Shown here one piece after another: positions 46 through 36,647 of a DNA stretch of 64,000 bases. Each line of letters opens with the position of its first letter. Position 1 is the first letter of the stretch. The notes below the pieces were generated by a model. The model was not told the origin of the DNA, ran no database searches, and saw only the letters and a program-made list of their open reading frames with translations. The position numbers and the translations under genes were made by a program. Source of the DNA: a virus; the IMG/VR virus record IMGVR_UViG_3300023223_000669, positions 96,001 to 160,000 of that record. The stretch is one strand, 5' to 3'.

Positions 46-708
46 ATGAGTGCTGGAGACTTCCCCGTAATTCGTGTCTTTGAATGGGACACGGCTGAAG
101 TGGCAAGCCCCGTGGGGACACGGAACTTGCCAGGGGGGAGCTTTGCATTCAAACAGATCGTGTCTTCCGGTTGTGCTACCGTAGATCCCAGTAATCCGGG
201 CACAACCTCTGGTACTCTCGTGTTTCAAGATACCAAGTTTGATCTTAGCAATCTACCCCTGCCGTCACATCTAGCATCGAAGGTCACGGCCATTACGTTT
301 AACCTCGCCGCCAGTGGTACGGCCATTTCAGACCTTAAACTTTTTGTGGTAGATGATAGTGCTTTTCAAGGAAGTGCCGACGAAGGATTAGACAGAGCTT
401 TTATACAGGCTTCTCCTAGTGGCGGTAATTGGCTACCACTCGTAGAGATGCCTTCGGGGTCCGTGAGCCGTCTTCCATTGATAGTTCCTACAGTCCCAAA
501 CGTACTCCGTCAGGATGGCGGCAATGCCCTTGTAGGCGAGGATGACCAGAATTCATCTGAATTTGTGTACTTAAATATTGTGATCCCGCTCGGTACACCC
601 CTGGGCACTTTTGGCGTCTGTGGCTCTGGTATTCTGAGGCTAGCATTAGTTTTTAACTACTGGTCCAATGACTTCATTCTGGAGTTTGGCGATCCTACAG
701 TGGGTTAG
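46..708 (+). CDS. putative virion structural protein (beta-rich, SG-rich)
   Basis: 220-aa ORF with an acidic, Gly/Ser/Val-rich composition like the neighbouring structural ORFs; no enzyme motif. Confidence 0.55.
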   Translation: MSAGDFPVIRVFEWDTAEVASPVGTRNLPGGSFAFKQIVSSGCATVDPSNPGTTSGTLVFQDTKFDLSNLPLPSHLASKVTAITFNLAASGTAISDLKLFVVDDSAFQGSADEGLDRAFIQASPSGGNWLPLVEMPSGSVSRLPLIVPTVPNVLRQDGGNALVGEDDQNSSEFVYLNIVIPLGTPLGTFGVCGSGILRLALVFNYWSNDFILEFGDPTVG

Positions 709-714
709 TGTATT
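705..714 (+). promoter_or_regulatory. candidate phage late-promoter motif TTAGTGTATT
   Basis: identical 10-mer at 12421 and 60692 and a 1-mismatch copy at 1008; all lie upstream of structural-region genes. Confidence 0.5.
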
Positions 715-767
715 ATACAGTGAGGTCATATCGACCTATCGAACGTTCGTTTTAATGGAGGTAAGCT

Positions 768-953
768 ATGGCTACTTTTAACGCAACTAGTAGCACCAAT
801 AACGCTAACCAAGTCCTCTGGGGCTGGAGCACGAAGCTCGTGCTGCACACTGACCGTGCGGTCACTGGCACCGCTCGCGGTGACCAAGTGCAGGCTGTAG
901 AGAATCTGGGCGTGGGTGTTGCGGCGGGAGATCCATTCACATTACTGACGTAA
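768..953 (+). CDS. small hypothetical protein (possible virion component)
   Basis: 61-aa ORF with GGAGG Shine-Dalgarno upstream, followed by a terminator hairpin. Confidence 0.7.
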   Translation: MATFNATSSTNNANQVLWGWSTKLVLHTDRAVTGTARGDQVQAVENLGVGVAAGDPFTLLT

Positions 954-977
954 TCTGACGGATTTTTGCTAAAAACA

Positions 978-1007
978 GGGCCGCTGTTCGTTCGCGAACA
1001 GCGGCTC
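978..1007 (+). terminator. intrinsic terminator-like hairpin
   Basis: GGGCCGCTGTTCG-TTCG-CGAACAGCGGCTC: 13-bp stem, UUCG loop, T-rich tail. Confidence 0.7.
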
Positions 1008-1017
1008 TTAGTTTATT
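1008..1017 (+). promoter_or_regulatory. candidate late-promoter motif variant TTAGTTTATT
   Basis: 1 mismatch to the motif; follows a hairpin directly, as at 60692. Confidence 0.4.
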
Positions 1018-1060
1018 ATCATATGGACGTAGCTCGAAGCTTAGTTCACGGAGAAAGGAA

Positions 1061-1609
1061 ATGGTTAAAACATGTAGCAGATGTGGCCTTGAAAAAGACC
1101 TGACGGACTTTTATAGGGATCGTCGTCACAGGGATGGTTATCGCTCTGATTGTAAGGCGTGTCACACGCCAGTAGTCCGTAAATACCAAGCTACCAAAAA
1201 CGGCAAGGCCGTTGCCAGGCTTTCTGATAAGCGACGAATTGGCACCGTAAAGCGTAAAGCGTCTCACAATCGAGCTACTGCTCGTTATAAGAAAACACCA
1301 CATGGCCGTCTTGTAGAGAACGCCTGTAGCCATCGTCGCCGAGAGCGTCAAATAGGTTTAGATTCCACATGGAGCAAAGAAGACATTCTAGAGGTCTATG
1401 CTCGTTTCGGGGATAAGTGTTTTGTGTGTGATACGTCCCATGATCTTTCGATTGATCATCACCGCCCCCTATCTGAAGGGCATAGTCTTTGTCTTGAAAA
1501 CGCTGTACTCCTTTGTGTTTCATGCAACGCATCTAAGAGCACAAAAGATCCACAAGACTTCTATGCTCAAGAGCAAATGGAGGTTCTCAATGGTCTCGGC
1601 ATCATTTGA
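1061..1609 (+). CDS. free-standing HNH homing endonuclease
   Basis: N-terminal CxxC...CKAC zinc module; C-terminal CFVC-x-LSIDHHRP-x-ENAVLLCVSCNASK HNH motif. Confidence 0.85.
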   Translation: MVKTCSRCGLEKDLTDFYRDRRHRDGYRSDCKACHTPVVRKYQATKNGKAVARLSDKRRIGTVKRKASHNRATARYKKTPHGRLVENACSHRRRERQIGLDSTWSKEDILEVYARFGDKCFVCDTSHDLSIDHHRPLSEGHSLCLENAVLLCVSCNASKSTKDPQDFYAQEQMEVLNGLGII

Positions 1610-2060
1610 GCACGAGGGTAATAGTGGCCTCCTGAAGTTGACAACTCACTTCGGTTGCGAAGTGGAGATCGTATGCGATAAGCTGAACGACGAGACGTTC
1701 AAGCTAGGCGGGACCGCAGTAAACGCGGTGGTCGTATACGAGGGGCTCGTTCTACAGCTTCCTGCTTGCCCATCCTTTGTTCGTTTTAGAGCCTTTCGTT
1801 CGGAAGAGGTTTACTTTGAGGACGAAGGCGTGATGTCCCACGAGGAGTGGGACGTGGCCGATCGCCATTGTTATGTGACTGAGTATTACAGTCTAGACAT
1901 GGAAGGTAAACCACCGGGCTGGTTTATCAGCAAAAGGCCAATCCAAGACGCCAACCACCTGTTCGTTAATCTTGATGTCTTAGATGGTGGTGGTAACGTT
2001 GTGAAGAGATACAGGGTCTCTCCATTTACAGGTGAACATGTTATTCGAGAGGGACTCTAA
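1590..2060 (+). CDS. hypothetical protein
   Basis: start moved to ATG 1590, which has GGAGG at 1579-1583; stop abuts the next gene at 2061. Confidence 0.65.
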   Translation: MVSASFEHEGNSGLLKLTTHFGCEVEIVCDKLNDETFKLGGTAVNAVVVYEGLVLQLPACPSFVRFRAFRSEEVYFEDEGVMSHEEWDVADRHCYVTEYYSLDMEGKPPGWFISKRPIQDANHLFVNLDVLDGGGNVVKRYRVSPFTGEHVIREGL

Positions 2061-5000
2061 ATGGTCGATCTTGTCACTGACAATCACTTGATTGGTTTCT
2101 GGCCAATGGATGAACCCAGCGGGACTCCAACGTTCAAGAACTATTCTCCTTCGTATGCCGGTAAGCCCAGTGGCATTTCGTTTGATTTACATCAACAACA
2201 AGCTACTGTTGGTGCCGTTGGTGCTATCAGTGAATGGCTTGGCAATACTGAAGTGACGGAATCTGGTGCGTTCACATATCGTGGCGTACAATTACATGGC
2301 AACTATCAATCTGTACAGACTGTTGCTAGTAGACATGTTAAATATCTGACTATTGGTCATGGTGGTTTTGGTCCTAGACACAAAACATTGACAGCACCTA
2401 CTGCCCAGAGTGGTTTCACATTTGGTCTTTGGGTGTTACCGCAGTCTGATGGCTATGATGGATTTGTTGATGGTGCAGATAATAGTCAGAAACAACACGG
2501 CCTAGGCAATGCTTTGTTTTTCCGTGGTGATGATGATCATGGTATCATGATTGGTGTGTCTGGGCAACTTATCGGAGGTTCCCAGTTTAGTGCTTTAGAA
2601 TTTGGTGGCCCACATCGTCTAACAGGATATGTATATGTTACTGGTGGTGATACTGCTAATCCGAGTACAGATGCTCGTGCCGAGATTCTAGAGACGCCTC
2701 TTGAGTCTGGCCAATTTGTGCATTTGACATGTTCATATCGCTATATTGATGGCACAGTCAATGAAGTTGTCCTTTATAAAAACGGAAGAGTGACAGCTAG
2801 TGGCACGACGGACGCTGGTTTACATGCTGCTGCTACACCTGCAGCGAATAACTTTGATGATGTGAAGTGGGCCATTGGTGCATCTGTTGACGATGGAGAC
2901 GGTAATCCAGCAGGAGTATATGACTTGACAACAGGATGGAACCATCTTGTTTCTGGTGCGTATTATTTTGCTCGTGTTTTGCACGAGGGCGAAGTTCAAG
3001 AAATGCATGAGAGAGGTGGTTTACAGAGAACCACTGGTAATATTGGTCCTGCGACAGCGGCGGTTAGCATTGATGATACTAGGCTACTGGCTTACTATTC
3101 ATTTGCTGCTGTTGGATATGCTGATGCATCTCGTCATCACCGTCCCTTGATTGCTGGCGTTGATGAGGGTGACCGTAGTACTCTTGCCGCATTTGCTGGC
3201 CCCTTTGGTCGTGGTGGTCTTTACAAAACGTCTCCAGCCGATACTTTGATAGCTTCTAGTGGTCTTACGTTTGCTTTTGCTGAATCTACTGCTGGATTCA
3301 CTATTGGTATTCGTTACGCACAGCAACTCAGTCCTACGTTTCCTAATAACGTTTTATTCAGTTTTGGTACTTGTGGCACGACATTCAATCCTACGGTTGT
3401 TAATTCCACTATGGGGCTCAGAGTATCCCGCGACACGACTCTCGACAGGGTATTTGCTCAAGTATTTCCAATTGGAGATGAAAATACTGTAGTGACTCTT
3501 ACCAGTAGTGATTTTGATCAAGCTGACCGGGTTATGGCCCATATGGCTTTTGCGTATTCTGTTGCCGATGATGGTTTTGCCCTGTATATTGATGGTGAAT
3601 TACATGCTAGTGGTACAGCACAAAACCCATTGATGCCTCACATGTTAAACTTGGCTGCTAGTGGTTTCCCTCTAGCATTTATTGGCGGCATTGCAGCGGA
3701 CAATCCCTTTGTTCTAGCTTCGGTTTCTGATGAAACCACGATTTGTGATATCTCAATTTTCGATTCTCCGTTAGGACAGGATGAAATTAGAGCCATCGCT
3801 CAGAGTGGTATCGATATTGTGCCATTGATGCGTACTCCGCACGATCCTCGTCTAGCTGGTTACTGGCCATGCACAGATTTTGATGGTGATGATGTTTTAA
3901 TTGAGGACCGTGCTAAGGTATGGCAGAACGAAGCGTCAGCACCGCTACGTTACTCTTTGAGTGATGAAGTCTGGGATGAGCTTGAGCTTTTAGACAATGA
4001 GGGTCCATGGATTCGTAGAGATGAATTTGTAGCCAAGACTCTTCCTCCAGAGCTTGCGAGCTTCGGTAACCTGGGTATTACTAGTGGTGCTTTCACGGTT
4101 AACACACAGGGCTCTAGACCGCTTGGCGAGAACGTCGATTCTAAATCTTCGGTTGCGAACTTCCCAACTAGATGGCGTGCCAATCCAGAAGATAACGATT
4201 TAGTAGCTACTCATCCATTTGGTGAATACATCATTATGTTTGATGTGACGCCTAGTGGCACCGTGCCGCCCGCACTAGAGTTTGCCACTAATATGGATTT
4301 TAATTCCGTTGTTTTTACGCTGACCGATAACAACGACGAGTTCATGGCATACCTGACCTCTGTAAATGCCGCCCAAGGTTCTGGTATTAGTCTTTGTTTC
4401 ATGGGGCGTGAAGTTAGTGCTGGTCAATCTCATGTTTCTGGTGAGGTACCCTATGGAGTTCCTACTCATGTCATGTATCACATGAAGTGGGACGATCCAA
4501 ATAATACTTCTTCGACTGCCCTGATTAGTTATTTAACTGCTCGTCTATATATTGCTGGTGTACCTATCATGCATCGTCGTATGTTAGGTCCAGATTCTAG
4601 ATTATGGCCAGATCAACAGGGTGGTGCTAGCCTTGACGAATGGATGTTAAACATTGGTGGTGAAGCTATTGATGAAGCCGAGACAGGACATGCTACTATC
4701 GCGGAAGTTGGTCTTGGTGGTAATTATGTACGCAACTTCACAATTATGCGTGGCACTTTCTCGCCTGATGATATCAGAAACTTTGCTGTATCTGGTATTG
4801 AAGATAAAGCACCTTTGACGGGGTTCAATGATGGTGCTTTACCCACAACCCAAGTGACTACTGCTGATGCTGCTCTTGAGGGCTATTGGCGTTTCAGTGG
4901 TCAGCCATCTGGAGAAACCGATCTCGGTCCTGCTGGTAATGATCTAGTTTCCCTGGCGAAACAAGCGATTGAAGACGGCGTTTTTACTCCTGGTGCGAAC

Positions 5001-6929
5001 GTAGAGTCAGCATATAATATTCGCTTTTTGCCTGGACCATTGCTTAATTCTGATCTCGGTGTGAAATCTAGTGGCATTAGCTATCTTGGTGATAATCCAT
5101 CTCTCAATCCCATTTCCCCATATGTAGCGTCTGGAGTTGCTTTCCAAGATCCTGGTGCTGGTTTTTCTATTGGGTTGTGGCTCGTCAAACGATCTCCCGT
5201 AGTTAGTAGTGATGCCGATGTTTTGATTGCGTATGGTGTTATTGATACAGGCATTGGTCAAACAGCCGTACAAGATAATGCTGGTTGGGCCATCTTTGTA
5301 GATGAAGATGATAGTGTACGTATGGTATTGTCAAGTGCTGGTAACATGCACCTTGATGACGTTCCCAACGCGGCAAACTCTGGCCTTGTGACCGCTGGTA
5401 CGAGTGCTGTTCTCGTACAATCTAATATCTCAGCTTTTGAAGCATATAAAAAGAGTGCTTACCATGTAGGCTCACTTGATAGTTGGCAACACTACATGTG
5501 GACATATGATGCTACGACCGAAGTTCTGAAATGTTATCAATCTGCTGTTTTGGTAGATGAGCGTGTAGCACCAACTCGTGCTAACCTACATGGTCCTGTA
5601 CATAACCCAATTGATCCATCAGCTCGTCTGATAACTTTCTTGCAACACCAAGAGGACGCTTCGGCGGAAAGCGTGCCATGGGTGTTTGGCAATACACGTT
5701 CTGCTGACGATCAATACATTACAGACGTGTGTTACTTTAGTCGTGCCTTAGACGCACAAGAAGTTGCTTACATTGCCTATAATGGCATCGATCAAGCGGA
5801 AGGTGTTGTTAGTAGCGGTATCGTTGGTGGCTTTATTCACGGTCAAGAGACTGCTTCTGGTATTATTGCTGGTTATTTTCAAGGCCTTGATACCGGGTCT
5901 GGTTTAATTGGTGGCTTTATACCAGGTGGTAATATTGGTAGTGGCCTTCTTGGTGGTTTTGTTTCTGGTGTTGTTTTTGGTGATGGCACCATTGGTGGTT
6001 TCGTTCAGGGTCTTGATATTGTATCCGGCATCATAGCTGGTTATATCCAAGGTGTTGATATTGGCTCTGGCATGATTGCTGGTTTCATTCACGGTCAAGA
6101 TATTGGTTCTGGTATCCTTGGTGGTTTGATTCTTGCCGGTGATCTTGCTAGCGGTATTCTTGGTGGTTATATCCAAGCCGCTGGTGTTGCTAGTGGCATT
6201 CTTGGCGGGTTTATGCTTGGTGGTCTTCAGGGGAACTTTGAATTCGATGCTGGATTTACGGTTGAAGTATTGGCCGCAGAAGACTTTGATGCCCAGCTTG
6301 AAATTGCCAAGACGGTTGCTTCTGACTTTGATGCTAAGCTTATTATTTTCCAGGACGAACTACCACCGTTGGTTGAAGTACTTATCCCAGGCCAAACCGT
6401 TACTGGCCAAGCACCACCATTCAATCAGTATTTCATTGGTAAGGCGTCTGGTCAACAAGGAAAGACCATCACACAGACCAAATGGACATTTGGAGACTTA
6501 ACCCCAACGCAAAGCGTTGCAGAGAGTGGTGCAGGCTGCTATCCAATCCAGCATTTCTATGCAACCAGTGGTTTCTATGTTGCTAAGTTTGAGGCTATTG
6601 ATTCTGACGGCATGCACAATTCTGCAACACGTATTATCAATGCAGCATCCGGTATTGATCCTGTTCTTATTACTCTATCTGGTGTACCGCGTTCTGGCGA
6701 TGCAGTATTACTAGTTGATTTTACAACAACAATTGATATCCTACCGCCGGGCGTTAGCGTTTCAACGCAGCTATTGAATTTTGATGACGGACAGACTACC
6801 ATCTCTTTCGATCCAACACATGCATATTCGGAGCCAGGCACTTATAAGCCAGTTTGGTGTATACGAGATTCGCGTGGATTCTTCTGGTGTGATAGCCTTG
6901 AGGCAGGAAGTGACATCGAAGAGGCGTAA
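2061..6929 (+). CDS. giant virion/fibre protein: 4 LamG/concanavalin A-like domains, 14-aa Gly-rich repeats, 2 PKD-like domains
   Basis: four repeated L-x-G/A-Y/F-W/Y starts paired with E-V/I-x-x-x-A-x-x-G ends typical of LamG_3; WTFGD..HFYATSGFYVAK and NFDDG..HAYSEPGTYK PKD signatures. Confidence 0.75.
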   Translation: MVDLVTDNHLIGFWPMDEPSGTPTFKNYSPSYAGKPSGISFDLHQQQATVGAVGAISEWLGNTEVTESGAFTYRGVQLHGNYQSVQTVASRHVKYLTIGHGGFGPRHKTLTAPTAQSGFTFGLWVLPQSDGYDGFVDGADNSQKQHGLGNALFFRGDDDHGIMIGVSGQLIGGSQFSALEFGGPHRLTGYVYVTGGDTANPSTDARAEILETPLESGQFVHLTCSYRYIDGTVNEVVLYKNGRVTASGTTDAGLHAAATPAANNFDDVKWAIGASVDDGDGNPAGVYDLTTGWNHLVSGAYYFARVLHEGEVQEMHERGGLQRTTGNIGPATAAVSIDDTRLLAYYSFAAVGYADASRHHRPLIAGVDEGDRSTLAAFAGPFGRGGLYKTSPADTLIASSGLTFAFAESTAGFTIGIRYAQQLSPTFPNNVLFSFGTCGTTFNPTVVNSTMGLRVSRDTTLDRVFAQVFPIGDENTVVTLTSSDFDQADRVMAHMAFAYSVADDGFALYIDGELHASGTAQNPLMPHMLNLAASGFPLAFIGGIAADNPFVLASVSDETTICDISIFDSPLGQDEIRAIAQSGIDIVPLMRTPHDPRLAGYWPCTDFDGDDVLIEDRAKVWQNEASAPLRYSLSDEVWDELELLDNEGPWIRRDEFVAKTLPPELASFGNLGITSGAFTVNTQGSRPLGENVDSKSSVANFPTRWRANPEDNDLVATHPFGEYIIMFDVTPSGTVPPALEFATNMDFNSVVFTLTDNNDEFMAYLTSVNAAQGSGISLCFMGREVSAGQSHVSGEVPYGVPTHVMYHMKWDDPNNTSSTALISYLTARLYIAGVPIMHRRMLGPDSRLWPDQQGGASLDEWMLNIGGEAIDEAETGHATIAEVGLGGNYVRNFTIMRGTFSPDDIRNFAVSGIEDKAPLTGFNDGALPTTQVTTADAALEGYWRFSGQPSGETDLGPAGNDLVSLAKQAIEDGVFTPGANVESAYNIRFLPGPLLNSDLGVKSSGISYLGDNPSLNPISPYVASGVAFQDPGAGFSIGLWLVKRSPVVSSDADVLIAYGVIDTGIGQTAVQDNAGWAIFVDEDDSVRMVLSSAGNMHLDDVPNAANSGLVTAGTSAVLVQSNISAFEAYKKSAYHVGSLDSWQHYMWTYDATTEVLKCYQSAVLVDERVAPTRANLHGPVHNPIDPSARLITFLQHQEDASAESVPWVFGNTRSADDQYITDVCYFSRALDAQEVAYIAYNGIDQAEGVVSSGIVGGFIHGQETASGIIAGYFQGLDTGSGLIGGFIPGGNIGSGLLGGFVSGVVFGDGTIGGFVQGLDIVSGIIAGYIQGVDIGSGMIAGFIHGQDIGSGILGGLILAGDLASGILGGYIQAAGVASGILGGFMLGGLQGNFEFDAGFTVEVLAAEDFDAQLEIAKTVASDFDAKLIIFQDELPPLVEVLIPGQTVTGQAPPFNQYFIGKASGQQGKTITQTKWTFGDLTPTQSVAESGAGCYPIQHFYATSGFYVAKFEAIDSDGMHNSATRIINAASGIDPVLITLSGVPRSGDAVLLVDFTTTIDILPPGVSVSTQLLNFDDGQTTISFDPTHAYSEPGTYKPVWCIRDSRGFFWCDSLEAGSDIEEA
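5811..6230 (+). repeat. 10 x 42-bp (14-aa) coding tandem repeat, consensus xSG[ILM][ILV][GA]G[FY][IVF]xGxD[IT]
   Basis: SSGIVGGFIHGQET / ASGIIAGYFQGLDT / GSGLIGGFIPGGNI ... ASGILGGFMLGGLQ; 420 nt. Confidence 0.9.
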
Positions 6930-6932
6930 GAT

Positions 6933-9900
6933 ATGAATATTATTATTTCAAATGCTATTGTTGTTAGCGGTGTTGGCGTACCGCTTAATGGCATTGAGTG
7001 GCCATCTGGTCAATTTGGTGCTGGAGAACCGGGTTCTCAGTTGTGTGCATTCTTATCTTCTATCAACGCCTCTTTTGGTTTCAATCTCACCCCACACTCA
7101 TTCCAAACTGAATGGATACCTTGTGGTGATCCATGTGCATTCCACGGGGCATCAGGACAGCTAGCTGATATTGGTCATTCACTAGAACTGTTTGTGGGTG
7201 ATTTCTTTTTCCGTGGCAAGGTGACTCACTCTGATTTTACATCTACCGCCGGGGGCACGATTGTAAGTGTCACAATTGAAGACGATAGACGCAACCTACG
7301 TAGTGTCAAACTCCATACGGAAGACTTAGGCGAAGACGCACCAAGCGGCGTTGTGTCTATTGCTCGTGGTTTCCGTGTCCTCAATGGACTGGAGGATGTT
7401 AATGGTAATCCAAACGATCCAAACATTAGAGAGTATAGACGGATCTTGCAGTTTGGAGGTACCTATAGTCAAATCATTCAAGCGATTGATCTACACTTTA
7501 ATGAAGGTACGTGTTCCGTTCCTATCTCTGATCTACCCACTGTAGAGCAACTTGAAAAGAACACTGGTGGTACGATTGAGGCTATCCGATTCCAGTTTAA
7601 CTTGGCACATCTTGATGAGGTGTTGTCGCGTGTCCTACTTGATACCGGATACGATTGGTACTGGAATATGGATGCTCAACGTGTCAACCTCATCAACAAG
7701 AAGGCCGTCTTTGATATCAGCGAGAATGACATTCTCGATTTGGTTTCTGAGTTCGGTAGTACCAGCGGCCTCAATGAGACTAAGCAGCTTGGCTTTGGTA
7801 AAGACGTTGTACCTGATCCCACTCGTTTCCGCGTGATTGGTGGTCATCAAGAAGGATTCATCAACTCCCATTTGTTGAGCCCGCTTGATGGTATTGACAC
7901 CTTCGGTATAGATGGTCATGTGAGTAGCACCGTTAAGGACCCTAACGTCAACCTCGTCTTCGAACCAGCATGGACAAGACTCACGATTGGTTTCTATGAT
8001 AATGATGGCTTCTACCGTACATATATGCCACTAGAGAAAGAACTACAACTTGCTCTGGCTGGCATTGAACAGTGGACATATTTCAAGATTTATCAAAACA
8101 CGTCGCCATCTAGTGATCCTGCTGGATATGGTTTACCGTCTGATGCTGGTTCTATTGCCGCTCAAAATCCAACATTCCAAAGTAGAATGGATCCAGTGAT
8201 GCCACTTGCTGCTGTTGGAACCGGCAACTCGGCGTCTGGTCTTCGACTGATTAGTAACCGTCGTGACGCGACACAGAACTGGGTATTGGATTTTTATGCC
8301 CGTGTCCGTGATCACGCCGCCAGACACTACGGGCGTTCGTATGTTGTAGAGGGACTGTTGTTTAATGAAGCATCTGGTCTATTCCGATTAATAGGTTCTG
8401 CGTGGGGTAACGTTGATAACCAAGTTGAAGGTTTCGCTTTATCGTCGTCCGGTGTTGTCACCCTGGGTGGCGGTAGCGGTGTTTTTGTGGAAGACTATGA
8501 GATCAACCGTGACCTCGGGCCAGTAAGTCCATTTATAGCAGACGACTTCCGAGTGCGAGCACACTGTCGTCTGCCCGCAGATACCATCTACGGCCCACAA
8601 GGCGATGCTAATCCAGCCAGCTTTGGCAACTGGACCGAAGATGCTCCACCATTCAACCCAACGGGCGATGGTAGTCATTACATTCCAGTCGAGTTGTCCC
8701 TGGTGGGGAATCGGGTGATCGACCCACGCAGTAGTGAACTTTACTCTTTTGAAGATTATCCTGAGGGTACTTTATGGTGTCAGCTACCGATCAATGCTGG
8801 GCCGTCTGGTGGACTCGTTGAGGATAATACTATTTCTACGCTTGCCACGTTGCTTACAATCAATACTAAGCTCACTGGCTCTGGTCTGCGTGACCTCATT
8901 AATCCAGCTATTATCCTGAATGTTTATGATTCTCTCTCGGGTGTTGTTATACCTGTAGAATCTCGCAGTCGCTATGGTCAGACATATCCTAGTCAGTGGG
9001 TTCTTGGAGAATTTCATTACGAGAGGGATGAAGATGTCCAGCTTGATGATCAGTTTGTACCATGGGCTTTCTCGCCAGCGGGTAACGAGACTTCTCTACA
9101 GATTATGACGGATAGAGCCGTGCGTCGTGCTGAGGGCAAGATCGTTCCTAGAAGTTCGTCTCGCTATGCCGATTTCCAACAGATTGGTCTGCCGCTGCTA
9201 TCGTTTGACGCTTTTGCTGAGCAGAGTATTGGACCATCGGGCTTGTTTGGTGAGATCAGCCACGGTGTCAGTGAGGTCAACATCACATTTGGTCTGGATG
9301 GTTTCCTTACACGCTACAAGATTCAATCATACTTCCCGAAATTTGGTCGCGAGGCCCCCTTGGGTGAACGTGTGCGTGCTCAGTTGAATGGTATCCTCAA
9401 TCCTATTGATTTTACCGACCTCAGCTTGTTGGATCCTGGACCGCCTGCACCCATCGATCCTCTATTGCCAGATGACCCTTTTGTACCTCCGGTATTTTTT
9501 GAACGCGAAGAACGGGCTGTACGTGTTACTATTATTGAGGTTAACAATATCTTCACGCTGTCTAGTAGTGCTGGCACAGAAAGAGATGAGCGTTATCGTG
9601 GCCGAGATCAAAATCAATACACAAAGCCGCCTAGAGGCAATAGTTCTTCTAATCTTGATCTCAAAGAAGGAGCTATTTGTATCGATGGTTTCTTGAACAT
9701 TAGTGACGAAGCCTTGTATCATACGGACGAGTTTGAGCTTCCTGGTGGCAATACTGTATTGCGTTACTTCACCCAAGGGCGTCCGTTTGGTAACGGTACT
9801 ATTGTTACGGTAGCACGGGTTAATCCTGTTGAAGCAACTAAGTTTGATGTTACTATTGTTGATCCTACAACACTAGCAACTCTTGGTGAGGAACGTGCTA

Positions 9901-10313
9901 TTTTTGCTGTGGAAGTTCTCAATGGCAGCGTAACTCTTGATGACAAGACAACTCTGGCGGTACAAGGCGATGGTCCAGTTTCTCCCGGTGCTAGCAACGG
10001 TACTATTTTCATTAATGGCACAGCACAAGATGTTACTGGAATAACTCCTGTAGAAATCGTGTCTGTGACTCAACAAGGATCCGAGTTTGCCTTAACCGTC
10101 TGTAAAGAGTTGGGTTTGGATGCTAATGGAGAATACTCTATTGCTTCGGGAGAGATGTTTACTAATGTAGTGCCTATTCCTTTCAGACAAATGGCGTCCT
10201 CTGGTGATCGTGGTTTTTTGATTACGCCTTTGGCTTCGCCTAGTGGTGGATTTGGTCGGACTAGTGCCGTTAGCTACATTGAGATCGTGAAGCCTGCGTT
10301 CTTCAAAATCTAG
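6933..10313 (+). CDS. large putative virion (tail/baseplate-like) protein
   Basis: 1126-aa acidic beta-rich ORF in the structural operon; no catalytic motif recognised. Confidence 0.6.
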   Translation: MNIIISNAIVVSGVGVPLNGIEWPSGQFGAGEPGSQLCAFLSSINASFGFNLTPHSFQTEWIPCGDPCAFHGASGQLADIGHSLELFVGDFFFRGKVTHSDFTSTAGGTIVSVTIEDDRRNLRSVKLHTEDLGEDAPSGVVSIARGFRVLNGLEDVNGNPNDPNIREYRRILQFGGTYSQIIQAIDLHFNEGTCSVPISDLPTVEQLEKNTGGTIEAIRFQFNLAHLDEVLSRVLLDTGYDWYWNMDAQRVNLINKKAVFDISENDILDLVSEFGSTSGLNETKQLGFGKDVVPDPTRFRVIGGHQEGFINSHLLSPLDGIDTFGIDGHVSSTVKDPNVNLVFEPAWTRLTIGFYDNDGFYRTYMPLEKELQLALAGIEQWTYFKIYQNTSPSSDPAGYGLPSDAGSIAAQNPTFQSRMDPVMPLAAVGTGNSASGLRLISNRRDATQNWVLDFYARVRDHAARHYGRSYVVEGLLFNEASGLFRLIGSAWGNVDNQVEGFALSSSGVVTLGGGSGVFVEDYEINRDLGPVSPFIADDFRVRAHCRLPADTIYGPQGDANPASFGNWTEDAPPFNPTGDGSHYIPVELSLVGNRVIDPRSSELYSFEDYPEGTLWCQLPINAGPSGGLVEDNTISTLATLLTINTKLTGSGLRDLINPAIILNVYDSLSGVVIPVESRSRYGQTYPSQWVLGEFHYERDEDVQLDDQFVPWAFSPAGNETSLQIMTDRAVRRAEGKIVPRSSSRYADFQQIGLPLLSFDAFAEQSIGPSGLFGEISHGVSEVNITFGLDGFLTRYKIQSYFPKFGREAPLGERVRAQLNGILNPIDFTDLSLLDPGPPAPIDPLLPDDPFVPPVFFEREERAVRVTIIEVNNIFTLSSSAGTERDERYRGRDQNQYTKPPRGNSSSNLDLKEGAICIDGFLNISDEALYHTDEFELPGGNTVLRYFTQGRPFGNGTIVTVARVNPVEATKFDVTIVDPTTLATLGEERAIFAVEVLNGSVTLDDKTTLAVQGDGPVSPGASNGTIFINGTAQDVTGITPVEIVSVTQQGSEFALTVCKELGLDANGEYSIASGEMFTNVVPIPFRQMASSGDRGFLITPLASPSGGFGRTSAVSYIEIVKPAFFKI

Positions 10314-10315
10314 TC

Positions 10316-12424
10316 ATGGTTTTTGAATCTGGCGATCCTCCGTATGATTATGATGGTCCTCGGGGACCATTGCGGGGTAATGCACGTCCATCTTTGGAGC
10401 GGGGTTTACAGGGTCCTAGCGGCATTAATTTGGAACAAGGTCAATTCGTTATTACGGCAGAAAGACGTAAGTTCAATGTAAACGCCGTTGGTGGATCCCA
10501 TATTTTGCCAACGTTCATGGTATATGTACATGAAGATATCCCTCCAACAACTCAGTACGAACCCAAAGGAGATGGCTCTACTTTAGCTAATATTGCTAGT
10601 GTGTGGATCATCAATCATATTCTTGAAAGTCGTATAGCATTAGATGATTTATTTGATGACTACTCTCTCGATGGTGAGTTTTCAGCACTTGACATGAAAC
10701 GAGACTGGTTGCACCAACTTGATCCAATGGGGCCGCCGCCATCTGGTTATCGTAGACCTGATCCTAACCAGTTGGGTGTTGCTGATGGTTTGTTGGACAC
10801 CACGAACGTAAGTGTTTTGGGCGGTTCTGGTATCTTGTTTGGATTGGACTTTGGCGAAGTCATGTTCAATCCATATCCATATTTCTCTAACAACAATTTT
10901 GGTGATCTACATAATTTTGGTAATTTTAGGTCTGTACTATTATCTCCCGTTTGGCCAGCGTTCCAAAGAACAAACGGATCACTGATCACTTTGAATGGTC
11001 GTGAACCTGATGATCTGCTAAATGCTGATGAGTATGATGTTACGGAGATTGCTAATGGCAGGGTTCGTTTAGACGGTTATTGTTTTTTGTCACAATCACA
11101 ATATTTGATTGGCGAAGGCAATGGCTACGCTTTCAACGGTGAGGTAGGCTTCACTTTTGTTTCAGCCTCTACTCGGCCAACCATTTTCCCAGACGCATCG
11201 AATCTTGCAACGACGCGGGTGATTGTAGATCCAACACCGCAGCCATGCGGCATCTATAAAATTGTCGTACGTAATCTGTTAGGAGAAGACGCCGTTCCAC
11301 AGTCAACTATTCCATCTGGTCTTGTTAGTCAGTGGCCTGTATCGGGTCAAACACATCCAGAGAGAGATGGTCACATTTTTGATATCAATATTCCATATAA
11401 CCTTCATGGTAAATGGTATAACAACACTGAGTTTGAAATGGGATATCAAGTATATGATGATGCCATGTGGATTACTGATGTGGGCTCTGCTGGAGAGGAC
11501 CCATCTGGCCTAGTTGTTACATCTCCATTCACCGGTCATGCTCAATGGTTGCGTTATGCCGAGCAAACCCCCAGTACTGGCTCTGGAGCACTTGGAGGTT
11601 CTAGTATGAGTGCTGAACCATGGGGAGATCATGTTGGACTCGATAGAGTTGGTAGTATTATTCACCGTGTTCAAACAGCAGTAGCCAACGGTAGTACATC
11701 TGCTGCTGGTACATTACTCATTCAACAGTATAATGATGCTCTAGATTATTTGGGACAAATTGAAACGGATGAAAACCCAGGACAGGGTGCCAGTCCATTC
11801 GCTAGAGATTTGGCTTTTGTTCCAGCCTCTAGTTCAGAATGGTGGGCCGTTATCGGCACGACTCCAGGTAATTTCATTTGGCGTTTTGATGGAACATTTA
11901 CTTTTATTGCGGCTGCTGGTATTGTCAATATTGGTACGGGAGAGCTTGCCACCGGGGGTGCGTCACCGCGAGTTGCTGATTTGGGTGGTACTGTTAGATT
12001 TGGTAATGTTCATGTGAGTCCTGGAAATGCCACATTTTCTCATAGAGGTAGTGGTATTTGGGATGCCGACATCAGTAACCTGAGTACAAGTGGTGTTGTT
12101 ACTGAAAATTGTCGCTTAATTGATCTTGCCCCCGTCCTAGAAGACGGCGGCGACGAACAAGCTTTCTGTACCGTTTATGACATGCAAGACGTTAGCGGTT
12201 CCGCACATCTTATTGATGGATTCTACTTTTTGGCTTCTTGGCAAGAATCTACATCGCCGTTCCCGAATCGCCTGTTTTTGATTCGTGCGGTACCACGAGA
12301 TGATTCGAGTGCCCCAGCCTTTTGTGTTGGTTTCTGGGACATCTTAGGCATCTATGATTTAGGCACCATCCCAAGCTCGGCCACAAGGTTGGATTTTGCT
12401 ATGATACTGAAGAACATTGATTAG
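10316..12424 (+). CDS. putative virion structural protein
   Basis: 702-aa acidic, Gly/aromatic-rich ORF coupled to the upstream gene. Confidence 0.55.
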   Translation: MVFESGDPPYDYDGPRGPLRGNARPSLERGLQGPSGINLEQGQFVITAERRKFNVNAVGGSHILPTFMVYVHEDIPPTTQYEPKGDGSTLANIASVWIINHILESRIALDDLFDDYSLDGEFSALDMKRDWLHQLDPMGPPPSGYRRPDPNQLGVADGLLDTTNVSVLGGSGILFGLDFGEVMFNPYPYFSNNNFGDLHNFGNFRSVLLSPVWPAFQRTNGSLITLNGREPDDLLNADEYDVTEIANGRVRLDGYCFLSQSQYLIGEGNGYAFNGEVGFTFVSASTRPTIFPDASNLATTRVIVDPTPQPCGIYKIVVRNLLGEDAVPQSTIPSGLVSQWPVSGQTHPERDGHIFDINIPYNLHGKWYNNTEFEMGYQVYDDAMWITDVGSAGEDPSGLVVTSPFTGHAQWLRYAEQTPSTGSGALGGSSMSAEPWGDHVGLDRVGSIIHRVQTAVANGSTSAAGTLLIQQYNDALDYLGQIETDENPGQGASPFARDLAFVPASSSEWWAVIGTTPGNFIWRFDGTFTFIAAAGIVNIGTGELATGGASPRVADLGGTVRFGNVHVSPGNATFSHRGSGIWDADISNLSTSGVVTENCRLIDLAPVLEDGGDEQAFCTVYDMQDVSGSAHLIDGFYFLASWQESTSPFPNRLFLIRAVPRDDSSAPAFCVGFWDILGIYDLGTIPSSATRLDFAMILKNID

Positions 12425-12430
12425 TGTATT
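12421..12430 (+). promoter_or_regulatory. candidate late-promoter motif TTAGTGTATT
   Basis: exact repeat of the motif, 88 nt upstream of ORF 12519. Confidence 0.5.
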
Positions 12431-12518
12431 TTCTAGATAGGCATTGGTGTGACCATAGCTAGTCTCGATGGTGGTGTTCCTGTAAAGGATAACAACCTTC
12501 TCGACCGAGGAAAGAACA

Positions 12519-13235
12519 ATGGTATCAGGTATTAGATTTTTTGCGTGCTCTGGAGCTATGGGCATGTTTGGGAACAAGGGCGAGAAGTCCATTGCCCAAG
12601 TTTACACCGAGACCGGCAGGGCCGATCCTCTGCTGGAGGTCTTTAATTTAGAGGCGGGAGCCGATGGTAGTCCCAACCGTATGGGCTTCTTCGGCCTATT
12701 GGGTGCTCCAAATAGTGCGGTTATTGTTGGTCAATATCCAGACACAACTTTCCGTACGGACGCCCTTGGTGCTCAGCTTGGCGAGATGATTAATGCGAAG
12801 TTCCTTGGAGCTTCTACTGTAGAGCTGTCTGGTACACTTGGTACTGGCCCCATGTTTGGTGCTTCTTTCGCCGTTGGTTCTGTTCCGAACCTATCAGGCA
12901 CGCTCCTGTGTCGTTTCACGGAACCTAATGGTACGAATGTTATTACTCAGCAGGCCACATTCCGTGCAGTAGACTTAACGGCTGCTTCTGGTCTACCTGA
13001 TATCAGTGACCTAGCAACGGGCATCACCGTGCAAGCGGCCCAGCTTCAAGATACTGCTGGCAATGCTGCTGATTCTTCATGGTCTGATGTTTCTGATAGT
13101 GGTGCTGCTTTAAGTTTGGCTGATCAATCAACCGAACAAGTCACCCATGACTTCCATCTACTTGTGAGTGGCTCGCCTGACGTGGCTGGTCGCAAGATAG
13201 ACTTTGGTTATTACATTCAGTTAGAGTTCCTGTAA
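12519..13235 (+). CDS. putative virion structural protein
   Basis: 238 aa, Ala/Gly/Ser/Thr-rich; GAGG upstream. Confidence 0.55.
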   Translation: MVSGIRFFACSGAMGMFGNKGEKSIAQVYTETGRADPLLEVFNLEAGADGSPNRMGFFGLLGAPNSAVIVGQYPDTTFRTDALGAQLGEMINAKFLGASTVELSGTLGTGPMFGASFAVGSVPNLSGTLLCRFTEPNGTNVITQQATFRAVDLTAASGLPDISDLATGITVQAAQLQDTAGNAADSSWSDVSDSGAALSLADQSTEQVTHDFHLLVSGSPDVAGRKIDFGYYIQLEFL

Positions 13236-13236: not shown

Positions 13237-13587
13237 ATGGAACGTAAGTGCTATGCCTGTCAAGACAGAAAGCCGCTTGAGGCTTTCGAAAAAGACAGTG
13301 CCAAGAAAGACGGTAGACGCTATCTCTGTAAAGAGTGTGGGAAAATTCGTGCTAGAGAACGACATCTTCGTATAAGTTACAATCTCTCTGAAGAAGATGT
13401 GCAAGAAATAAAACACACTCAGGGCGGCCGTTGTAAATTATGTAATCGGAAACGGAAATTGTGCATCGATCACGACCATGAGTCTGGTCGGGTGCGTGGA
13501 CTTTTGTGTTATCGGTGTAATCGTTCTTTAGGATGTTTGGGGATACCGAAAAGAGCTACAGCGTGTAGTATTCTATTTACAAGGTAG
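13237..13587 (+). CDS. endonuclease VII-like (His-Me finger) homing nuclease, C-terminus apparently frameshifted
   Basis: GRCKLC-x-LCIDHDHESGRVRGLLCYRCNRSLG motif; the expected GD...LxRxxxYL tail lies in shifted frames. Confidence 0.8.
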   Translation: MERKCYACQDRKPLEAFEKDSAKKDGRRYLCKECGKIRARERHLRISYNLSEEDVQEIKHTQGGRCKLCNRKRKLCIDHDHESGRVRGLLCYRCNRSLGCLGIPKRATACSILFTR

Positions 13588-24723: not shown

Positions 24724-25446
24724 ATGATTACGCAGAAGATGATGAAGCACAATATCGTATGGCTAGAAGAGTCCAGCATAATGGTTGATGAGATCTCTGA
24801 GGAAGAGGTTGAGTCTCTCCTGGATGAATATCGTCCTATCGTTACTCGCATTGCTCGATCGGCTTTCTATTCCTCAGCAGCTATTGATGTCAACGACCTT
24901 ATCCGCGTTGGTGAGTTTGCCGTCCTACAAGCTGTCAAAGCCTATGACCCCACCTGTGGTACAACCATTCGCTCTTTTGTGTCTAGAGTTGTACGAAACG
25001 AAATTTTCCATGAAGCCGCCCGCTTCTTGGGAGTGTTTACAGTAGACCACCGAGTCACCAGCCTAGCTGCCAAGGTTAATAAATTACACGCTAAGGGGCA
25101 GAGTGACACGGAGATTGCCGAGGTGCTCAATGCATCCGGCAGTCGCAATTTTGATGCGGACCATGTTCGCGATTTACGTATTGCCTATAGTCGCCGTCAG
25201 CATTCAGCTTTGACAGACGACGATGCTCTCGAAGAGTATTCTGCCGAGGAAAACACAATCCAAGAACTATTGCGGGGAGTTGTGCAAAACCCAATAGAGC
25301 AGACTATTTTAGACGAAAGGATCCTAGGCGATAAATCAGTAAAGGACGTGGCTTGTATCTTATGCCTATCGCAACGTCAAGTATACGATCTGGAAAACCA
25401 ACTCAAAGATCGTATCCGGAAAGCCATTGAAGATGTAACGGAATGA
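24724..25446 (+). CDS. sigma70-family RNA polymerase sigma factor (true start may be 24739 or 24781)
   Basis: region 2 DVNDLIRVGEFAVLQAVKAYDP-x-SFVSRVVRNEI; region 4 HTH SVKDVACILCLSQRQVYDLE. Confidence 0.85.
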   Translation: MITQKMMKHNIVWLEESSIMVDEISEEEVESLLDEYRPIVTRIARSAFYSSAAIDVNDLIRVGEFAVLQAVKAYDPTCGTTIRSFVSRVVRNEIFHEAARFLGVFTVDHRVTSLAAKVNKLHAKGQSDTEIAEVLNASGSRNFDADHVRDLRIAYSRRQHSALTDDDALEEYSAEENTIQELLRGVVQNPIEQTILDERILGDKSVKDVACILCLSQRQVYDLENQLKDRIRKAIEDVTE

Positions 25447-35215: not shown

Positions 35216-35568
35216 AAACCTTAGATTTTGATGAAATCAAACAAGATGTCGTAAATTTCTTACTTGAAACATGTCTTGATACTCATGTAACAGGATGTGT
35301 GTTTGAAAATCGAGTCGTATTTAATGTCTATGTTAGAAATTCAACGCTCGATATAGACGAGGGTCGTCTGCAAGCAATCTTAGCAAAGTATAATTTGGTG
35401 GGAGATGATGACTTAGTACATACATTTCCAGTGAGTCCAGGAGGATTTTACAATCAGTATTTTAATATTGGTTGTACGGCTCAAGAGGCCATACGTGTAT
35501 CCATGACTTTAGATCCTAATTATCAAAAACCAAACGAAGATCCTATTGCTGTTGTACGTCCATTATGA
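35212..35568 (+). CDS. hypothetical protein
   Basis: 118 aa, coupled on both sides. Confidence 0.55.
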   Translation: MKTLDFDEIKQDVVNFLLETCLDTHVTGCVFENRVVFNVYVRNSTLDIDEGRLQAILAKYNLVGDDDLVHTFPVSPGGFYNQYFNIGCTAQEAIRVSMTLDPNYQKPNEDPIAVVRPL

Positions 35569-36647
35569 AAGCTCTAACGTTTGATGATATCTCTCTTGTC
35601 CCGCGATACAACAACATTGCTTCGCGGAACGACGTAGACACCAACGTACAGTTTGGGGGTCTCAAATTGAAAATTCCTGTGTTTTCAGCCAATATGGAGA
35701 CTGTAACTGGTGCTACAATGGCTGATAAAATGTCACAACTTGGTGGCCTTGGGTTTCTTCATAGATTTTGTTCTATTGAAGATAATGTTTCTATGTACCT
35801 TGATGCTACGCCCGGTAAAGGAATATCAAAACGAGACCACCTAGTACAAGGCACTGAAGCTGTAGTGTCACTCGGTATCAATGAGGGACTTGAGCGTTTC
35901 CATGCTCACTATGAGGTAGGTGCTCGCTACTTCTGTGTTGATATTGCACATGGTCACAGTCAGTTGGTTGGACGTATTATTCAACAGATCAAAGAATTCA
36001 GCGATGACACGTTTGTCATCGCTGGGAACGTCTGTCACGCTGCCGGGGCTGAATACCTTGCAGACAAGGGTGCTGATGCGGTAAAAGTTGGTGTCGGCCC
36101 CGGAAGCGTATGCACCACACGCATCAAAACCGGTTTCGGTGTGCCACAGTTTTCGGCAATCAAAGCTTGTCGAAGAATCAATGTCTTTGTCATTGCTGAT
36201 GGTGGTATACGGCATCCGGGGGATGCCGTAAAAGCATTTGTGGCGGGTGCAGATGCCATCATGTTAGGCGGCATGCTTGCCGGGTGCGACGAAACCCCTG
36301 GTGAAATTCAGCATGAAACTATTACGCTTGGTGGTACTTACCATGATCATAAGTTCAATGTCAAAAACTCGGGATACAAAGTATTCCGAGGCATGGCTTC
36401 CAAGGAAGCTCAGGATGATTTCATGGGCAAAATGAGCGGCTGGAAAACGTCCGAAGGCGTAGAGATTAAGATTGAGGCTAAAGGGCCTGTTGTGAACGTA
36501 GTGAACGATCTCATGGGCGGTATTCGTAGTGGTATGACTTATGTTGGAGCCAATAGACTGAAGGAACTACGAGAGCGAGCAGACTGGGTAGAAGTTACTG
36601 CTGCTGGCCGAACAGAAGGTAGCCCGCATGGCGAAGGGAGACTATGA
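35565..36647 (+). CDS. IMPDH/GMP reductase family enzyme without CBS domains (GMP reductase favoured)
   Basis: LTFDDISLVP, DIAHGHS, IAGNV, KVGVGPGSVCTT, IADGGI, FRGMAS, GGIRSGMTYVGA; no Arg-Tyr flap dyad. Confidence 0.9.
   Translation: MKALTFDDISLVPRYNNIASRNDVDTNVQFGGLKLKIPVFSANMETVTGATMADKMSQLGGLGFLHRFCSIEDNVSMYLDATPGKGISKRDHLVQGTEAVVSLGINEGLERFHAHYEVGARYFCVDIAHGHSQLVGRIIQQIKEFSDDTFVIAGNVCHAAGAEYLADKGADAVKVGVGPGSVCTTRIKTGFGVPQFSAIKACRRINVFVIADGGIRHPGDAVKAFVAGADAIMLGGMLAGCDETPGEIQHETITLGGTYHDHKFNVKNSGYKVFRGMASKEAQDDFMGKMSGWKTSEGVEIKIEAKGPVVNVVNDLMGGIRSGMTYVGANRLKELRERADWVEVTAAGRTEGSPHGEGRL

Follow-up and report, generated by a model that had tools for sequence, protein, structure and literature searches.

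Schellman and alpha-L helix C-caps, as well as the type-I turn with a G1 bulge, are established motifs combining a polar cap residue, a Gly capable of a left-handed conformation and a hydrophobic residue. Ordinary proteins fill the capping position with Ser, Asn, Asp or Thr alike; Asn-Gly is prone to deamidation and Asp-Gly to isomerisation. In eukaryotic proteoglycan xylosylation, the acceptor is Ser-Gly, strictly with Ser, in disordered regions and with acidic flanks as a requirement. In phages, Freeman and colleagues reportedly found in 2023 that mycobacteriophage virions are glycosylated by phage-encoded transferases, with capsid and tail-tube subunits being modified; to our knowledge, no defined dipeptide sequon has been described for that system. 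Furthermore, the autotransporter heptosyltransferases TibC and AAH, which act on TibA and AIDA-I, are cytoplasmic GT-B enzymes that modify many loop serines of a folded, beta-rich adhesin. TibC has bound iron ions, and the excerpted text of the source gives no Ser-Gly consensus for these enzymes (PMC4358343).

Herein, an uncultured phage with a genome of 183.1 kb was analysed, centred on a window of 64,000 nt from record IMGVR_UViG_3300023223_000669. In its tail-tip proteins the Ser-Gly (SG) dipeptide is selected at the protein level, is Ser-specific and is held at fixed positions. SG richness is inherited with the tail-tip module across phages of 24–78% identity. A structural turn or cap is the reading favoured below, and glycosylation of the serines is weighed against it.

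Ser-Gly enrichment in the tail-tip and fibre proteins

The genes concerned are as follows, in window coordinates:

46–708, plus strand: 220-aa tail-tip protein (6 SG against 2.4 expected)
2061–6929, plus strand: 1622-aa receptor-binding-type protein (38 SG; Pfam, AlphaFold, Foldseek)
5824–6205, plus strand: tandem repeat array of 42 bp (14 aa) (Tandem Repeats Finder, periods 42 and 84)
6933–10313, plus strand: 1126-aa tail-tip protein (16 SG against 9.1 expected, z 2.5)
10316–12424, plus strand: 702-aa tail-tip or fibre protein, fast-evolving (11 SG and 11 GS, z 2.1 for both)
12519–13235, plus strand: 238-aa tail-tip protein (7 SG against 2.6 expected)
62781–63999, plus strand: start of a second fibre-like gene cluster with SG excess, running on to genome position 163357

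Expected numbers were obtained from shuffles preserving each protein's own composition. The 1622-aa protein carries 38 SG and only 9 GS, five of the latter inside GSG, against an expectation of 14.8 (z 6.5; none of 2000 shuffles was as high). The preliminary description had reported this asymmetry, and its counts were reproduced almost exactly, the sole mismatch being the 238-aa protein, with 7 SG rather than 6. In the 702-aa protein the two dipeptides are equally frequent.

When 12 tail-like proteins of the whole genome were pooled, a set picked partly by its SG counts, 129 SG were found against 55.5 expected (about 2.3-fold, z 10.8), which places SG first among all 400 dipeptides. In the same set, GS is at expectation (56 against 55.5), TG is depleted (38 against 50.5), and neither NG (30 against 34, 0.88-fold) nor DG (48 against 47, 1.02-fold) is enriched. 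A set defined by position only, comprising every reading frame of 150 aa or more located downstream of the tape measure, gave 95 SG against 40.7 expected (z 8.9). The remaining 245 reading frames of the genome are at expectation (198 against 189.5), and the scarcity of SG in cytoplasmic enzymes described earlier was confirmed (DnaE 3, NrdJ 3, DnaB 1).

The enrichment first ascribed to virion proteins in general is narrower than proposed, being found in tail-tip and fibre proteins but not in the head. The major capsid protein (genome positions 77668–78693) has no SG at all, the portal and tape measure are at expectation, and pooled head, neck and tail-tube proteins show no enrichment (1.12-fold for SG and likewise for DG). 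A dense glycan coat over the whole virion, attached through SG, is therefore unsupported. In a comparison set of 24 proteins (14,298 aa) from the tails, baseplates and fibres of T4, lambda and T5, SG, NG and DG reach 1.21-, 1.22- and 1.26-fold, so the excess observed here is roughly double the bias usual for turns and concerns Ser specifically.

The 1622-aa protein comprises four LamG/ConA-like jelly rolls, a fibre segment of 14-aa repeats and two C-terminal PKD domains (Pfam matches Laminin_G_3, PKD and PKD_4). Foldseek matched its models to trans-sialidase lectin domains, laminin LG and clostridial neurotoxin binding domains, with probability 1.0 to lectin-type jelly rolls, and its PKD aligns with that of ColH. 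A search yielded 98 homologues, and no relative was found among 50,697 deposited phage genomes. The repeat unit, approximately x-S-G-I-I-G-G-F/Y-I-x-G-x-D-x, accounts for 10 of the 38 SG, and the array, modelled as a monomer, has low AlphaFold confidence; without it, 28 SG remain against 11.4 expected (z 5.4). Most of the tail-tip and fibre genes gave nothing in Pfam or PHROGs, including the 220-aa protein. The 1126-aa protein has only 52 relatives among 1.84 billion representative proteins, and the 238-aa protein has homologues in the remote phages G009 and G011. In the second cluster, the 157-aa frame at 62781 carries 4 SG and matches the PHROG 'virion structural protein', and a 599-aa protein has a BclA_C-like C-terminus at a sub-threshold score.

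Conservation, placement and inheritance of the Ser-Gly sites

Conservation in the 1622-aa family was computed on 94 homologues of about 42% identity. The Ser of SG is conserved at 89%, compared with 31% for other Ser and 71% for Trp, and both residues of the dipeptide exceed Trp. At least 90% conservation is reached in 28 SG columns, and 38 of the 129 near-invariant columns derive from SG, although SG makes up only 4.7% of residues. The whole excess of the family sits in 37 fixed columns, with no turnover of positions; outside them SG is rare (5.1 against 11.7 expected, a ratio of 0.44, third lowest of 96 dipeptides). Where substitutions occur, Gly is replaced by N, D, A or S and Ser by N, A, T or D, Thr almost never taking the place of Ser. 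Both Ser codon families, TCN and AGY, are found at the same conserved SG column in 21 of 38 cases, so a DNA motif is not the cause. Conserved NG (6 columns) and DG (5 columns) are also present in the protein. The same tendency was found in the neighbouring proteins, with Ser of SG against other Ser at 0.87 and 0.52 in the 220-aa protein (13 orthologues), 0.92 and 0.50 in the 1126-aa protein (23 orthologues), 0.51 and 0.17 in the 702-aa protein (17 orthologues of 27–33% identity), and 0.82 and 0.42 in the 238-aa protein (23 orthologues).

Remote homologues of the 1126-aa protein (30–36% identity) carry T, D or N followed by G, N or D at most SG columns and have no SG excess. Within the 1622-aa protein, one paralogous helix C-end reads R-G, S-G, S-G and N-G across the four LamG domains, which have few SG positions in common. 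The canonical PKD of ColH has SG at only one of four family positions, indicating that these folds do not demand it.

On AlphaFold models, used for secondary structure and confidence only, loops and the borders of secondary-structure elements account for 20 of the 24 SG sites that fall outside the repeat array: three helix C-ends (one in a low-confidence stretch), one helix N-end, three hairpin loops, three strand starts, three strand ends and seven other loops. The other four sites are inside strands. The context is [P/A]-S-G-[I/V/L]-[L/F/V], with hydrophobic residues at 59% and 54% at the two positions past Gly against a background of 33%. Charged residues, at 17% in the background, fall to 6% at -1 and +2 and to 9% at +3, and acidic flanks of the eukaryotic xylosylation type are absent around the SG sites. 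The in-strand sites and the hydrophobic residues after Gly suggest partial burial.

Among relatives, SG in the tail-tip module reaches 2.1–2.6-fold in G000, G009 and G006, all of which have the common module, and the nine relatives with this module are SG-rich where examined. The complete 195-kb genome G010 has the same head and replication genes and two transferases, yet a different tail tip; its SG is at 1.36-fold, equal to GS. In post-tape-measure proteins of G000, G009, G006 and G011, NG stands at 0.73–0.93-fold and DG at 0.46–1.13-fold. In 67 related loci, the non-structural genes carry SG at the expected frequency.

Structural and glycosylation readings of the motif

The preferred reading, to which we assign a probability of about 0.5, is that SG serves the tail-tip module as a structural turn or cap particular to this lineage. 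After Ser would come a Gly in the left-handed conformation, and after that a hydrophobic residue leading back into the sheet or stapling the helix end. The local geometry would match that of Schellman or alpha-L helix C-caps and, in hairpins, of a type-I turn with a G1 bulge. LamG, PKD, fibre-repeat and unassigned beta-rich domains in the proteins encoded past the tape measure would all reuse the element. We infer a left-handed Gly and a capping backbone at the SG sites. Counted in favour are the placement of 20 of 24 sites, the LamG paralogue spectrum, the T/D/N and G/N/D pairs of remote homologues, the hydrophobic residues past Gly, the fixed columns and the inheritance with the module, together with the replacements of Ser and Gly (N, D, A, S, T), which can take the same backbone and capping roles. 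Counted against it, conservation of 0.89 compared with 0.71 for Trp is extreme for a mere capping residue, Thr is nearly excluded here though accepted by remote homologues at equivalent columns, folds such as the ColH PKD do not demand SG, and the lost NG/DG enrichment could explain no more than about 20 of some 74 surplus SG. NG and DG are without the bias usual in tails, as if Ser had assumed their role. Ser may be preferred over Asn, Asp and Thr because adhesins that persist outside the cell avoid Asn-Gly and Asp-Gly, or the preference may simply have been inherited within a pool of recombining modules.

An alternative, the one proposed in the preliminary description, is glycosylation, for which the following features are relevant:

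25443–51336, plus strand: glycosylation island of about 26 kb (Pfam scans)
25443–27248, plus strand: 601-aa glycosyltransferase of the GT4 family, carrying a four-Cys insertion and a DUF4214 tail (Pfam, alignment)

The island encodes GT4, GT2 and CgeB-like transferases, sugar methyltransferases, nucleotidyltransferases, an aldolase, a GDP-mannose 4,6-dehydratase (GMD) and a related FCL-like epimerase/reductase; the only transferase models matched were Glycos_transf_1, Glycos_transf_2 and Glyco_trans_1_2. The 601-aa GT4 adjoins DnaE in remote relatives, a 240-aa sigma-factor-like gene intervening here. It is found in all nine related records with the tail module and in 67 IMG/VR loci, is as conserved as core genes, and is the sole island transferase conserved in all relatives and the only plausible lineage-wide candidate enzyme.

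In its restricted form, the glycosylation reading takes [P/A]-S-G-hydrophobic as the Ser-specific acceptor of a phage-encoded cytoplasmic O-glycosyltransferase, with the 601-aa GT4 starting a glycan that variable island enzymes extend. It is a tentative proposition, and we consider it rather unlikely, that a widespread uncultured lineage of large aquatic phages marks its tail-tip adhesins, and not the whole virion, in this way at about 100 surface turns per virion protein set by means of the core Cys4-insertion GT4. The one-directional enrichment of Ser, with TG depleted and NG and DG flat, would suit an acceptor, as would the conservation of Ser and Gly above Trp, the persistence of Ser through codon-family switches, the apparent conversion of turns from T/D/N-G/N/D to S-G in this clade and the rarity of stray SG. 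Loop placement, confinement to tail-tip and fibre proteins, and the conservation of one GT4 point in the same direction. The sugar island is present in all relatives, and among its scanned genes no lipid-carrier or export family was found. A Tet/JBP or thymidylate-synthase-type (ThyA) gene that would suggest DNA glycosylation was not found either.

However, the SG-free capsid and the portal and tape measure at expectation weigh against it, as do the fixed positions without turnover, the four in-strand sites with mostly hydrophobic residues after Gly, the occasional N, D and A substitutions that preserve the turn and lose the acceptor, and the missing acidic flanks. The 601-aa GT4 also occurs in G010 (27% identity), beside a second shared GT4, without SG asymmetry, so that SG richness appears to go with the tail-tip module rather than with the transferase. 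In the remote SG-rich G009 and G006, most other island genes have no orthologue; besides the GT4, matches were limited to GMD, an IMPDH/GMP-reductase gene and few others, a weak partial GT2-like match being the only other transferase. All 14 relatives tested have at least one transferase, and none without was found. No known protein O-glycosyltransferase family was recognised among the island enzymes, PDB matches being insignificant, and scans of the island gave no GT14-type enzyme.

Less probable still is a turn in which the exclusive use of Ser is owed to the chemical durability of long-lived extracellular adhesins, Ser replacing the Asn and Asp of Asn-Gly and Asp-Gly. The usual NG and DG enrichment of T4, lambda and T5 tails is lost in this lineage, and remote homologues show N or D where this clade has S. 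But such replacement explains only a minority of the excess, conserved NG and DG columns remain in the 1622-aa protein, and Thr-Gly would do equally well, yet TG is depleted. Head and tail-tube proteins are equally exposed without SG excess (and with DG at 1.12-fold), which weakens the chemical reason further. Finally, it is very improbable, and was rejected, that composition, internal repeats or a motif in the DNA create the excess artificially: although the proteins are rich in Ser and Gly and the 14-aa repeat carries ten SG, composition-preserving shuffles give z 6.5 to 10.8 with GS at expectation, the excess survives removal of the array, the LamG domains share few SG positions, codon families are mixed within columns and non-structural genes of the related loci are at expectation.

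That a motif of two residues should be conserved above tryptophan, and only in the host-recognition module, is an unusual degree of constraint. If structural, the motif would allow outer tail-tip proteins to be recognised in unannotated phage genomes by a simple sequence signature and would offer a rule for designing turns in beta-rich fibres. Should the serines carry a modification, it would define an enzyme-substrate pair and the first O-glycosylation sequon of a bacteriophage, confined to the host-recognition apparatus, and would explain the transferase islands of large aquatic phages that have no export family among the scanned genes.

Comparison with described systems

The closest likeness of the preferred turn reading is to Schellman, alpha-L and G1-bulge motifs, since SG lies at helix C-ends and in hairpin loops, Gly exchanges with Asn and Asp, and the cap position with Ser, Asn, Asp and Thr. 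Unlike ordinary caps, Ser is nearly exclusive here, surpasses Trp in conservation and occurs in a motif with roughly double the frequency seen in T4, lambda and T5 tails. The mycobacteriophage system resembles this locus in its phage-encoded transferases and sugar-nucleotide enzymes, cytoplasmic virion assembly and proposed O-linked chemistry, but in the present phage the capsid is without SG and the enrichment is limited to tail-tip and fibre proteins. TibC, with its bound iron, can be likened to the phage GT4 with its four-Cys insertion; however, the phage enzyme matches GT4 (Glycos_transf_1) and not the GT9-like heptosyltransferase family, and no ADP-heptose pathway was identified. The eukaryotic xylosylation site shares the dipeptide and the strict use of Ser, whereas in the phage proteins positions -1, +2 and +3 are poor in charged residues and SG lies at turns of folded domains. 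In overall build, the 1622-aa protein resembles phage tail receptor-binding proteins made of LamG/ConA-like and PKD domains, and it differs from the canonical PKD of ColH in sharing only one of the four SG positions of its family.

Serine-glycine excess in the tail-tip genes

The record G000, the phage to which the window belongs (G000:C1:96001-160000), is complete at 183,100 bp with direct terminal repeats, and nearly all genes of the window lie on the + strand. Its layout was derived from gene order and from matches obtained with PHROG, Pfam and tblastn.

Genome 67.9 kb: terminase
Genome 70.4 kb: portal
Genome 77,668-78,693: major capsid protein, whose only cultured relative found was a weak match, the Bacillus phage G major head protein
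Genome 88,375-93,813: tape measure, 1812 aa
Genome 93,817-109,235: tail-tip gene run, more than half of which is taken up by the stretch rich in serine-glycine dipeptides (SG), window 46-13,235
After the tail-tip run and before the glycosylation island: replication genes RecA, DnaB and DnaE
Window 25.4-51.3 kb: glycosylation island
From window 62.8 kb: second fibre cluster

Five HNH/endonuclease-VII-type genes are spread over the structural and replication modules (window 1061-1609, 13237-13587, 54909-55502, 61269-61712 and 62146-62781). The start of a 220-aa ORF at 1398-2060 overlaps one of them by ~210 bases, so its true start is probably later. In addition, 14 tRNA genes lie on the minus strand in genome 1-20000 (locus L026), and WhiB, sought as a host clue, was absent.

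Manual SG counts in the preliminary description proved nearly exact when recomputed, and per-protein, composition-preserving shuffles provided the expected values.

SG dipeptides in individual tail-tip proteins
Window 46-708, 220 aa: 6 observed, 2.4 expected
Window 2061-6929, 1622 aa: 38 observed, 14.8 expected (z 6.5); 9 GS
Window 6933-10313, 1126 aa: 16 observed, 9.1 expected
Window 10316-12424, 702 aa: 11 observed, 6.2 expected; GS likewise 11
Window 12519-13235, 238 aa: 7 observed, 2.6 expected

Cytoplasmic enzymes contain few SG (DnaE 3, NrdJ 3, DnaB 1). Pooling 12 tail-like proteins genome-wide, a set picked partly by SG counts, gave 129 SG against 55.5 expected (z 10.8), far above all other dipeptides (the runner-up, AS, reached z 4.5), with TG below expectation (38 against 50.5) and no departure for NG or DG; the other 245 ORFs of the genome yielded 198 SG against 189.5. 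A set defined by position only, comprising every ORF of 150 aa or more that lies downstream of the tape measure, contained 95 SG against 40.7 (z 8.9). The proposed excess of SG over shuffled expectation was therefore confirmed, with pooled GS at expectation (56 against 55.5). The enrichment had been ascribed to virion proteins at large and read as the O-glycosylation sequon of a dense glycan coat. It holds for the tail-tip proteins and is lacking in the head proteins, portal and tape measure; the capsid protein has 0 SG, and a dense coat on the virion is thus unsupported for the head. A mild SG excess can also come from nucleotide-binding Gly motifs, as shown by a non-virion enzyme, the 429-aa FAD-dependent oxidoreductase (DAO family) at window 55432-56721, with 6 SG against 2.7 expected.

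Several artefactual origins can be dismissed. Window 5824-6205 holds an array of 42-bp tandem repeats, translated as ~10 units of 14 aa with one SG per unit; its removal from the 1622-aa protein leaves 28 SG against 11.4 expected (z 5.4), which, together with the per-protein shuffles, rules out a composition or repeat artefact. Domain duplication is likewise rejected as the source, since only a few SG positions are common to the four LamG domains. A DNA-level motif is contradicted by the mixture of TCN and AGY serine codons at SG and by the codon-family switches among orthologues, in which both families occur at 21 of 38 conserved SG columns, pointing to selection at the amino-acid level. The SG excess is real, strong and under selection.

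Conservation and structural placement of the sites

For the 1622-aa protein, 98 homologues were recovered (33-63% identity, contigs up to 183 kb), all of them metagenomic; no cultured-phage relatives of the tail proteins were found. The SG excess is present in every homologue, with a median SG/expected of 2.2. One relative has an expanded homologue of 2772 aa at L018:1665-9983 (locus in IMGVR_UViG_3300001798_000006; also P0087, P0088), which contains 67 SG against 28 expected.

Mean conservation in the alignment of 94 homologues of the 1622-aa protein
Gly of SG: 0.93
Ser of SG: 0.89
Trp: 0.71
Other Gly: 0.61
All columns: 0.42
Other Ser: 0.31

Of the 129 near-invariant columns in this family, 38 belong to SG, and 28 SG columns are conserved at 90% or more, against five for GG, the next dipeptide. 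Outside the 37 fixed columns SG is scarce (5.1 against 11.7 expected, a ratio of 0.44, where the median for other dipeptides is 0.84), and the excess is therefore positional, without sign of turnover. Across the other tail-tip proteins, conservation is 0.75-0.92 for SG serines and 0.42-0.52 for the remaining serines, and the RecA control revealed no difference (0.42 against 0.45).

AlphaFold models of the 1622-aa protein were built from 40-sequence alignments, with a pLDDT of 82.5 for residues 1-640 and 65.4 for residues 901-1622, the repeat segment being modelled poorly. They contain LamG/ConA-type jelly rolls, matched by Foldseek to trans-sialidase lectin domains, laminin LG and neurotoxin binding domains, and two PKD domains. 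Of the 24 SG sites that do not belong to the repeat array, three fall at helix ends (Ser as the last helical or first post-helix residue, Gly next; one in a low-confidence stretch), one at a helix start, three in hairpin loops, three at or just before a strand start, three at or just after a strand end, seven in other loops and four inside strands. The context of 127 sites is [P/A]-S-G-[I/V/L/Q]-[L/F/A/V]; positions -1, +2 and +3 are poor in charged residues. Where variable, the Gly is replaced by N, D, A or S and the Ser by N, A, T or D, and the equivalent helix end across the four LamG domains reads R-G, S-G, S-G and N-G. These features fit a single local geometry that recurs in different kinds of secondary structure, in which a capping residue would be followed by a left-handed Gly and then by a hydrophobic anchor; judged by established structural motifs, this would be the arrangement seen in Schellman-type helix C-caps and in G1-bulge hairpins.

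The glycosyltransferase island and inheritance of the excess

Relatives without transferases were sought and none was found, at least one transferase occurring in all 14 relatives tested. Whole-record comparisons identified the 601-aa GT4 (window 25443-27248), the first gene of the island, as the only island enzyme conserved everywhere. This enzyme has a four-Cys (zinc-ribbon-like) insertion and ends in a DUF4214. It was found in 9 of 9 related records and, with identities of 27-81%, in 67 IMG/VR loci; its only cultured relative found was a weak match, from Synechococcus phage S-EIVl. Its conservation exceeds that of most structural genes. In remote relatives it adjoins DnaE; here a 240-aa sigma-factor-like gene (sigma-70 region 2, window 24724-25446) intervenes. 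Genes flanking it in the 67 loci are mostly non-structural and include only two small SG-rich ORFs, SG being at expectation in the non-structural ones, which served as a negative control. For the remaining transferases of the island, the SG-rich related phages G009 and G006 yielded no orthologue, save for one weak and partial GT2-like match. An IMP dehydrogenase/GMP reductase-family gene (window 35565-36647) and a uridine kinase/phosphoribulokinase-family gene (window 42939-43715) also lie within the sugar island. DNA glycosylation was rejected as the purpose of the island, as no Tet/JBP or thymidylate-synthase-type gene was found, the Tet/JBP search having been run without a positive control.

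SG and GS observed/expected, pooled over ORFs of 150 aa or more that lie downstream of the tape measure; controls are 24 tail, baseplate and fibre proteins; identity is that of the GT4 to G000
G009: identity 36-41%; SG 2.64; GS 1.18
G000 (this phage): identity 100%; SG 2.33; GS 1.00
G006: identity 34-38%; SG 2.11; GS 0.86
G011: identity 35%; SG 1.64; GS 1.01
G010: identity 27%; SG 1.36; GS 1.36
T4/lambda/T5 tail proteins: no GT4; SG 1.21; GS 1.07

G010, a complete relative of 195 kb, shares the head (capsid 49% identical), the replication genes, the 601-aa GT4 and a second GT4, and its tail-tip module is unrelated to that of G000. SG richness thus seems to travel with the tail-tip module and not with the transferase, although at 27% identity the G010 GT4 may act differently.

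Interpretation and comparison with other tail proteins

At a probability of roughly one half, S-G-hydrophobic is the standard chain-reversal and capping element of the tail-tip module; it would have been inherited with the module and multiplied within it. This structural reading does not explain the strict Ser, which outranks Trp in conservation and is hardly ever replaced by Thr, with NG and DG unused. The same features leave room for a narrower version of the sequon proposal, a putative Ser-specific modification confined to the tail-tip adhesins, which we consider rather unlikely; no phage or bacterial SG sequon turned up in the literature searched. Durability, in that Ser avoids Asn-Gly and Asp-Gly, accounts for part of the pattern at most. 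Within the second fibre cluster, a 599-aa fibre protein (genome 161558-163357; L025:1558-3357) matches, below threshold, the C1q/TNF-like domain found at the BclA C-terminus and shares the N-terminal motif D-L-V-P-x-x-S-G ... H-Q-x-S-G with a neighbouring 268-aa protein.

Relatives of the 1126-aa protein are few, 52 in a set of 1.84 billion representative proteins. Among its remote full-length homologues (30-36% identity), most show no SG excess and have T/D/N plus G/N/D in the columns where the query has SG, a picture, drawn from a noisy loop alignment, in which turn positions may have become S-G in this clade. The records G006-G009, which encode such remote homologues, contain strongly SG-rich neighbours in the same module (e.g. 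39 against 11.7, 36 against 11.3 and 21 against 5.9). A fold-intrinsic motif is rejected on the remote homologues of the 1126-aa protein, which lack the sites, and on the ColH PKD domain, where SG aligns at only one of four family SG positions. Nor is the excess a generic property of phage tail proteins: the 24 T4, lambda and T5 proteins show SG at only 1.21x, on par with NG (1.22x) and DG (1.26x), and TG at 0.96x. The usual turn bias of such proteins is therefore slight and falls on Ser, Asn and Asp alike, whereas here it reaches 2.3x and is confined to Ser.
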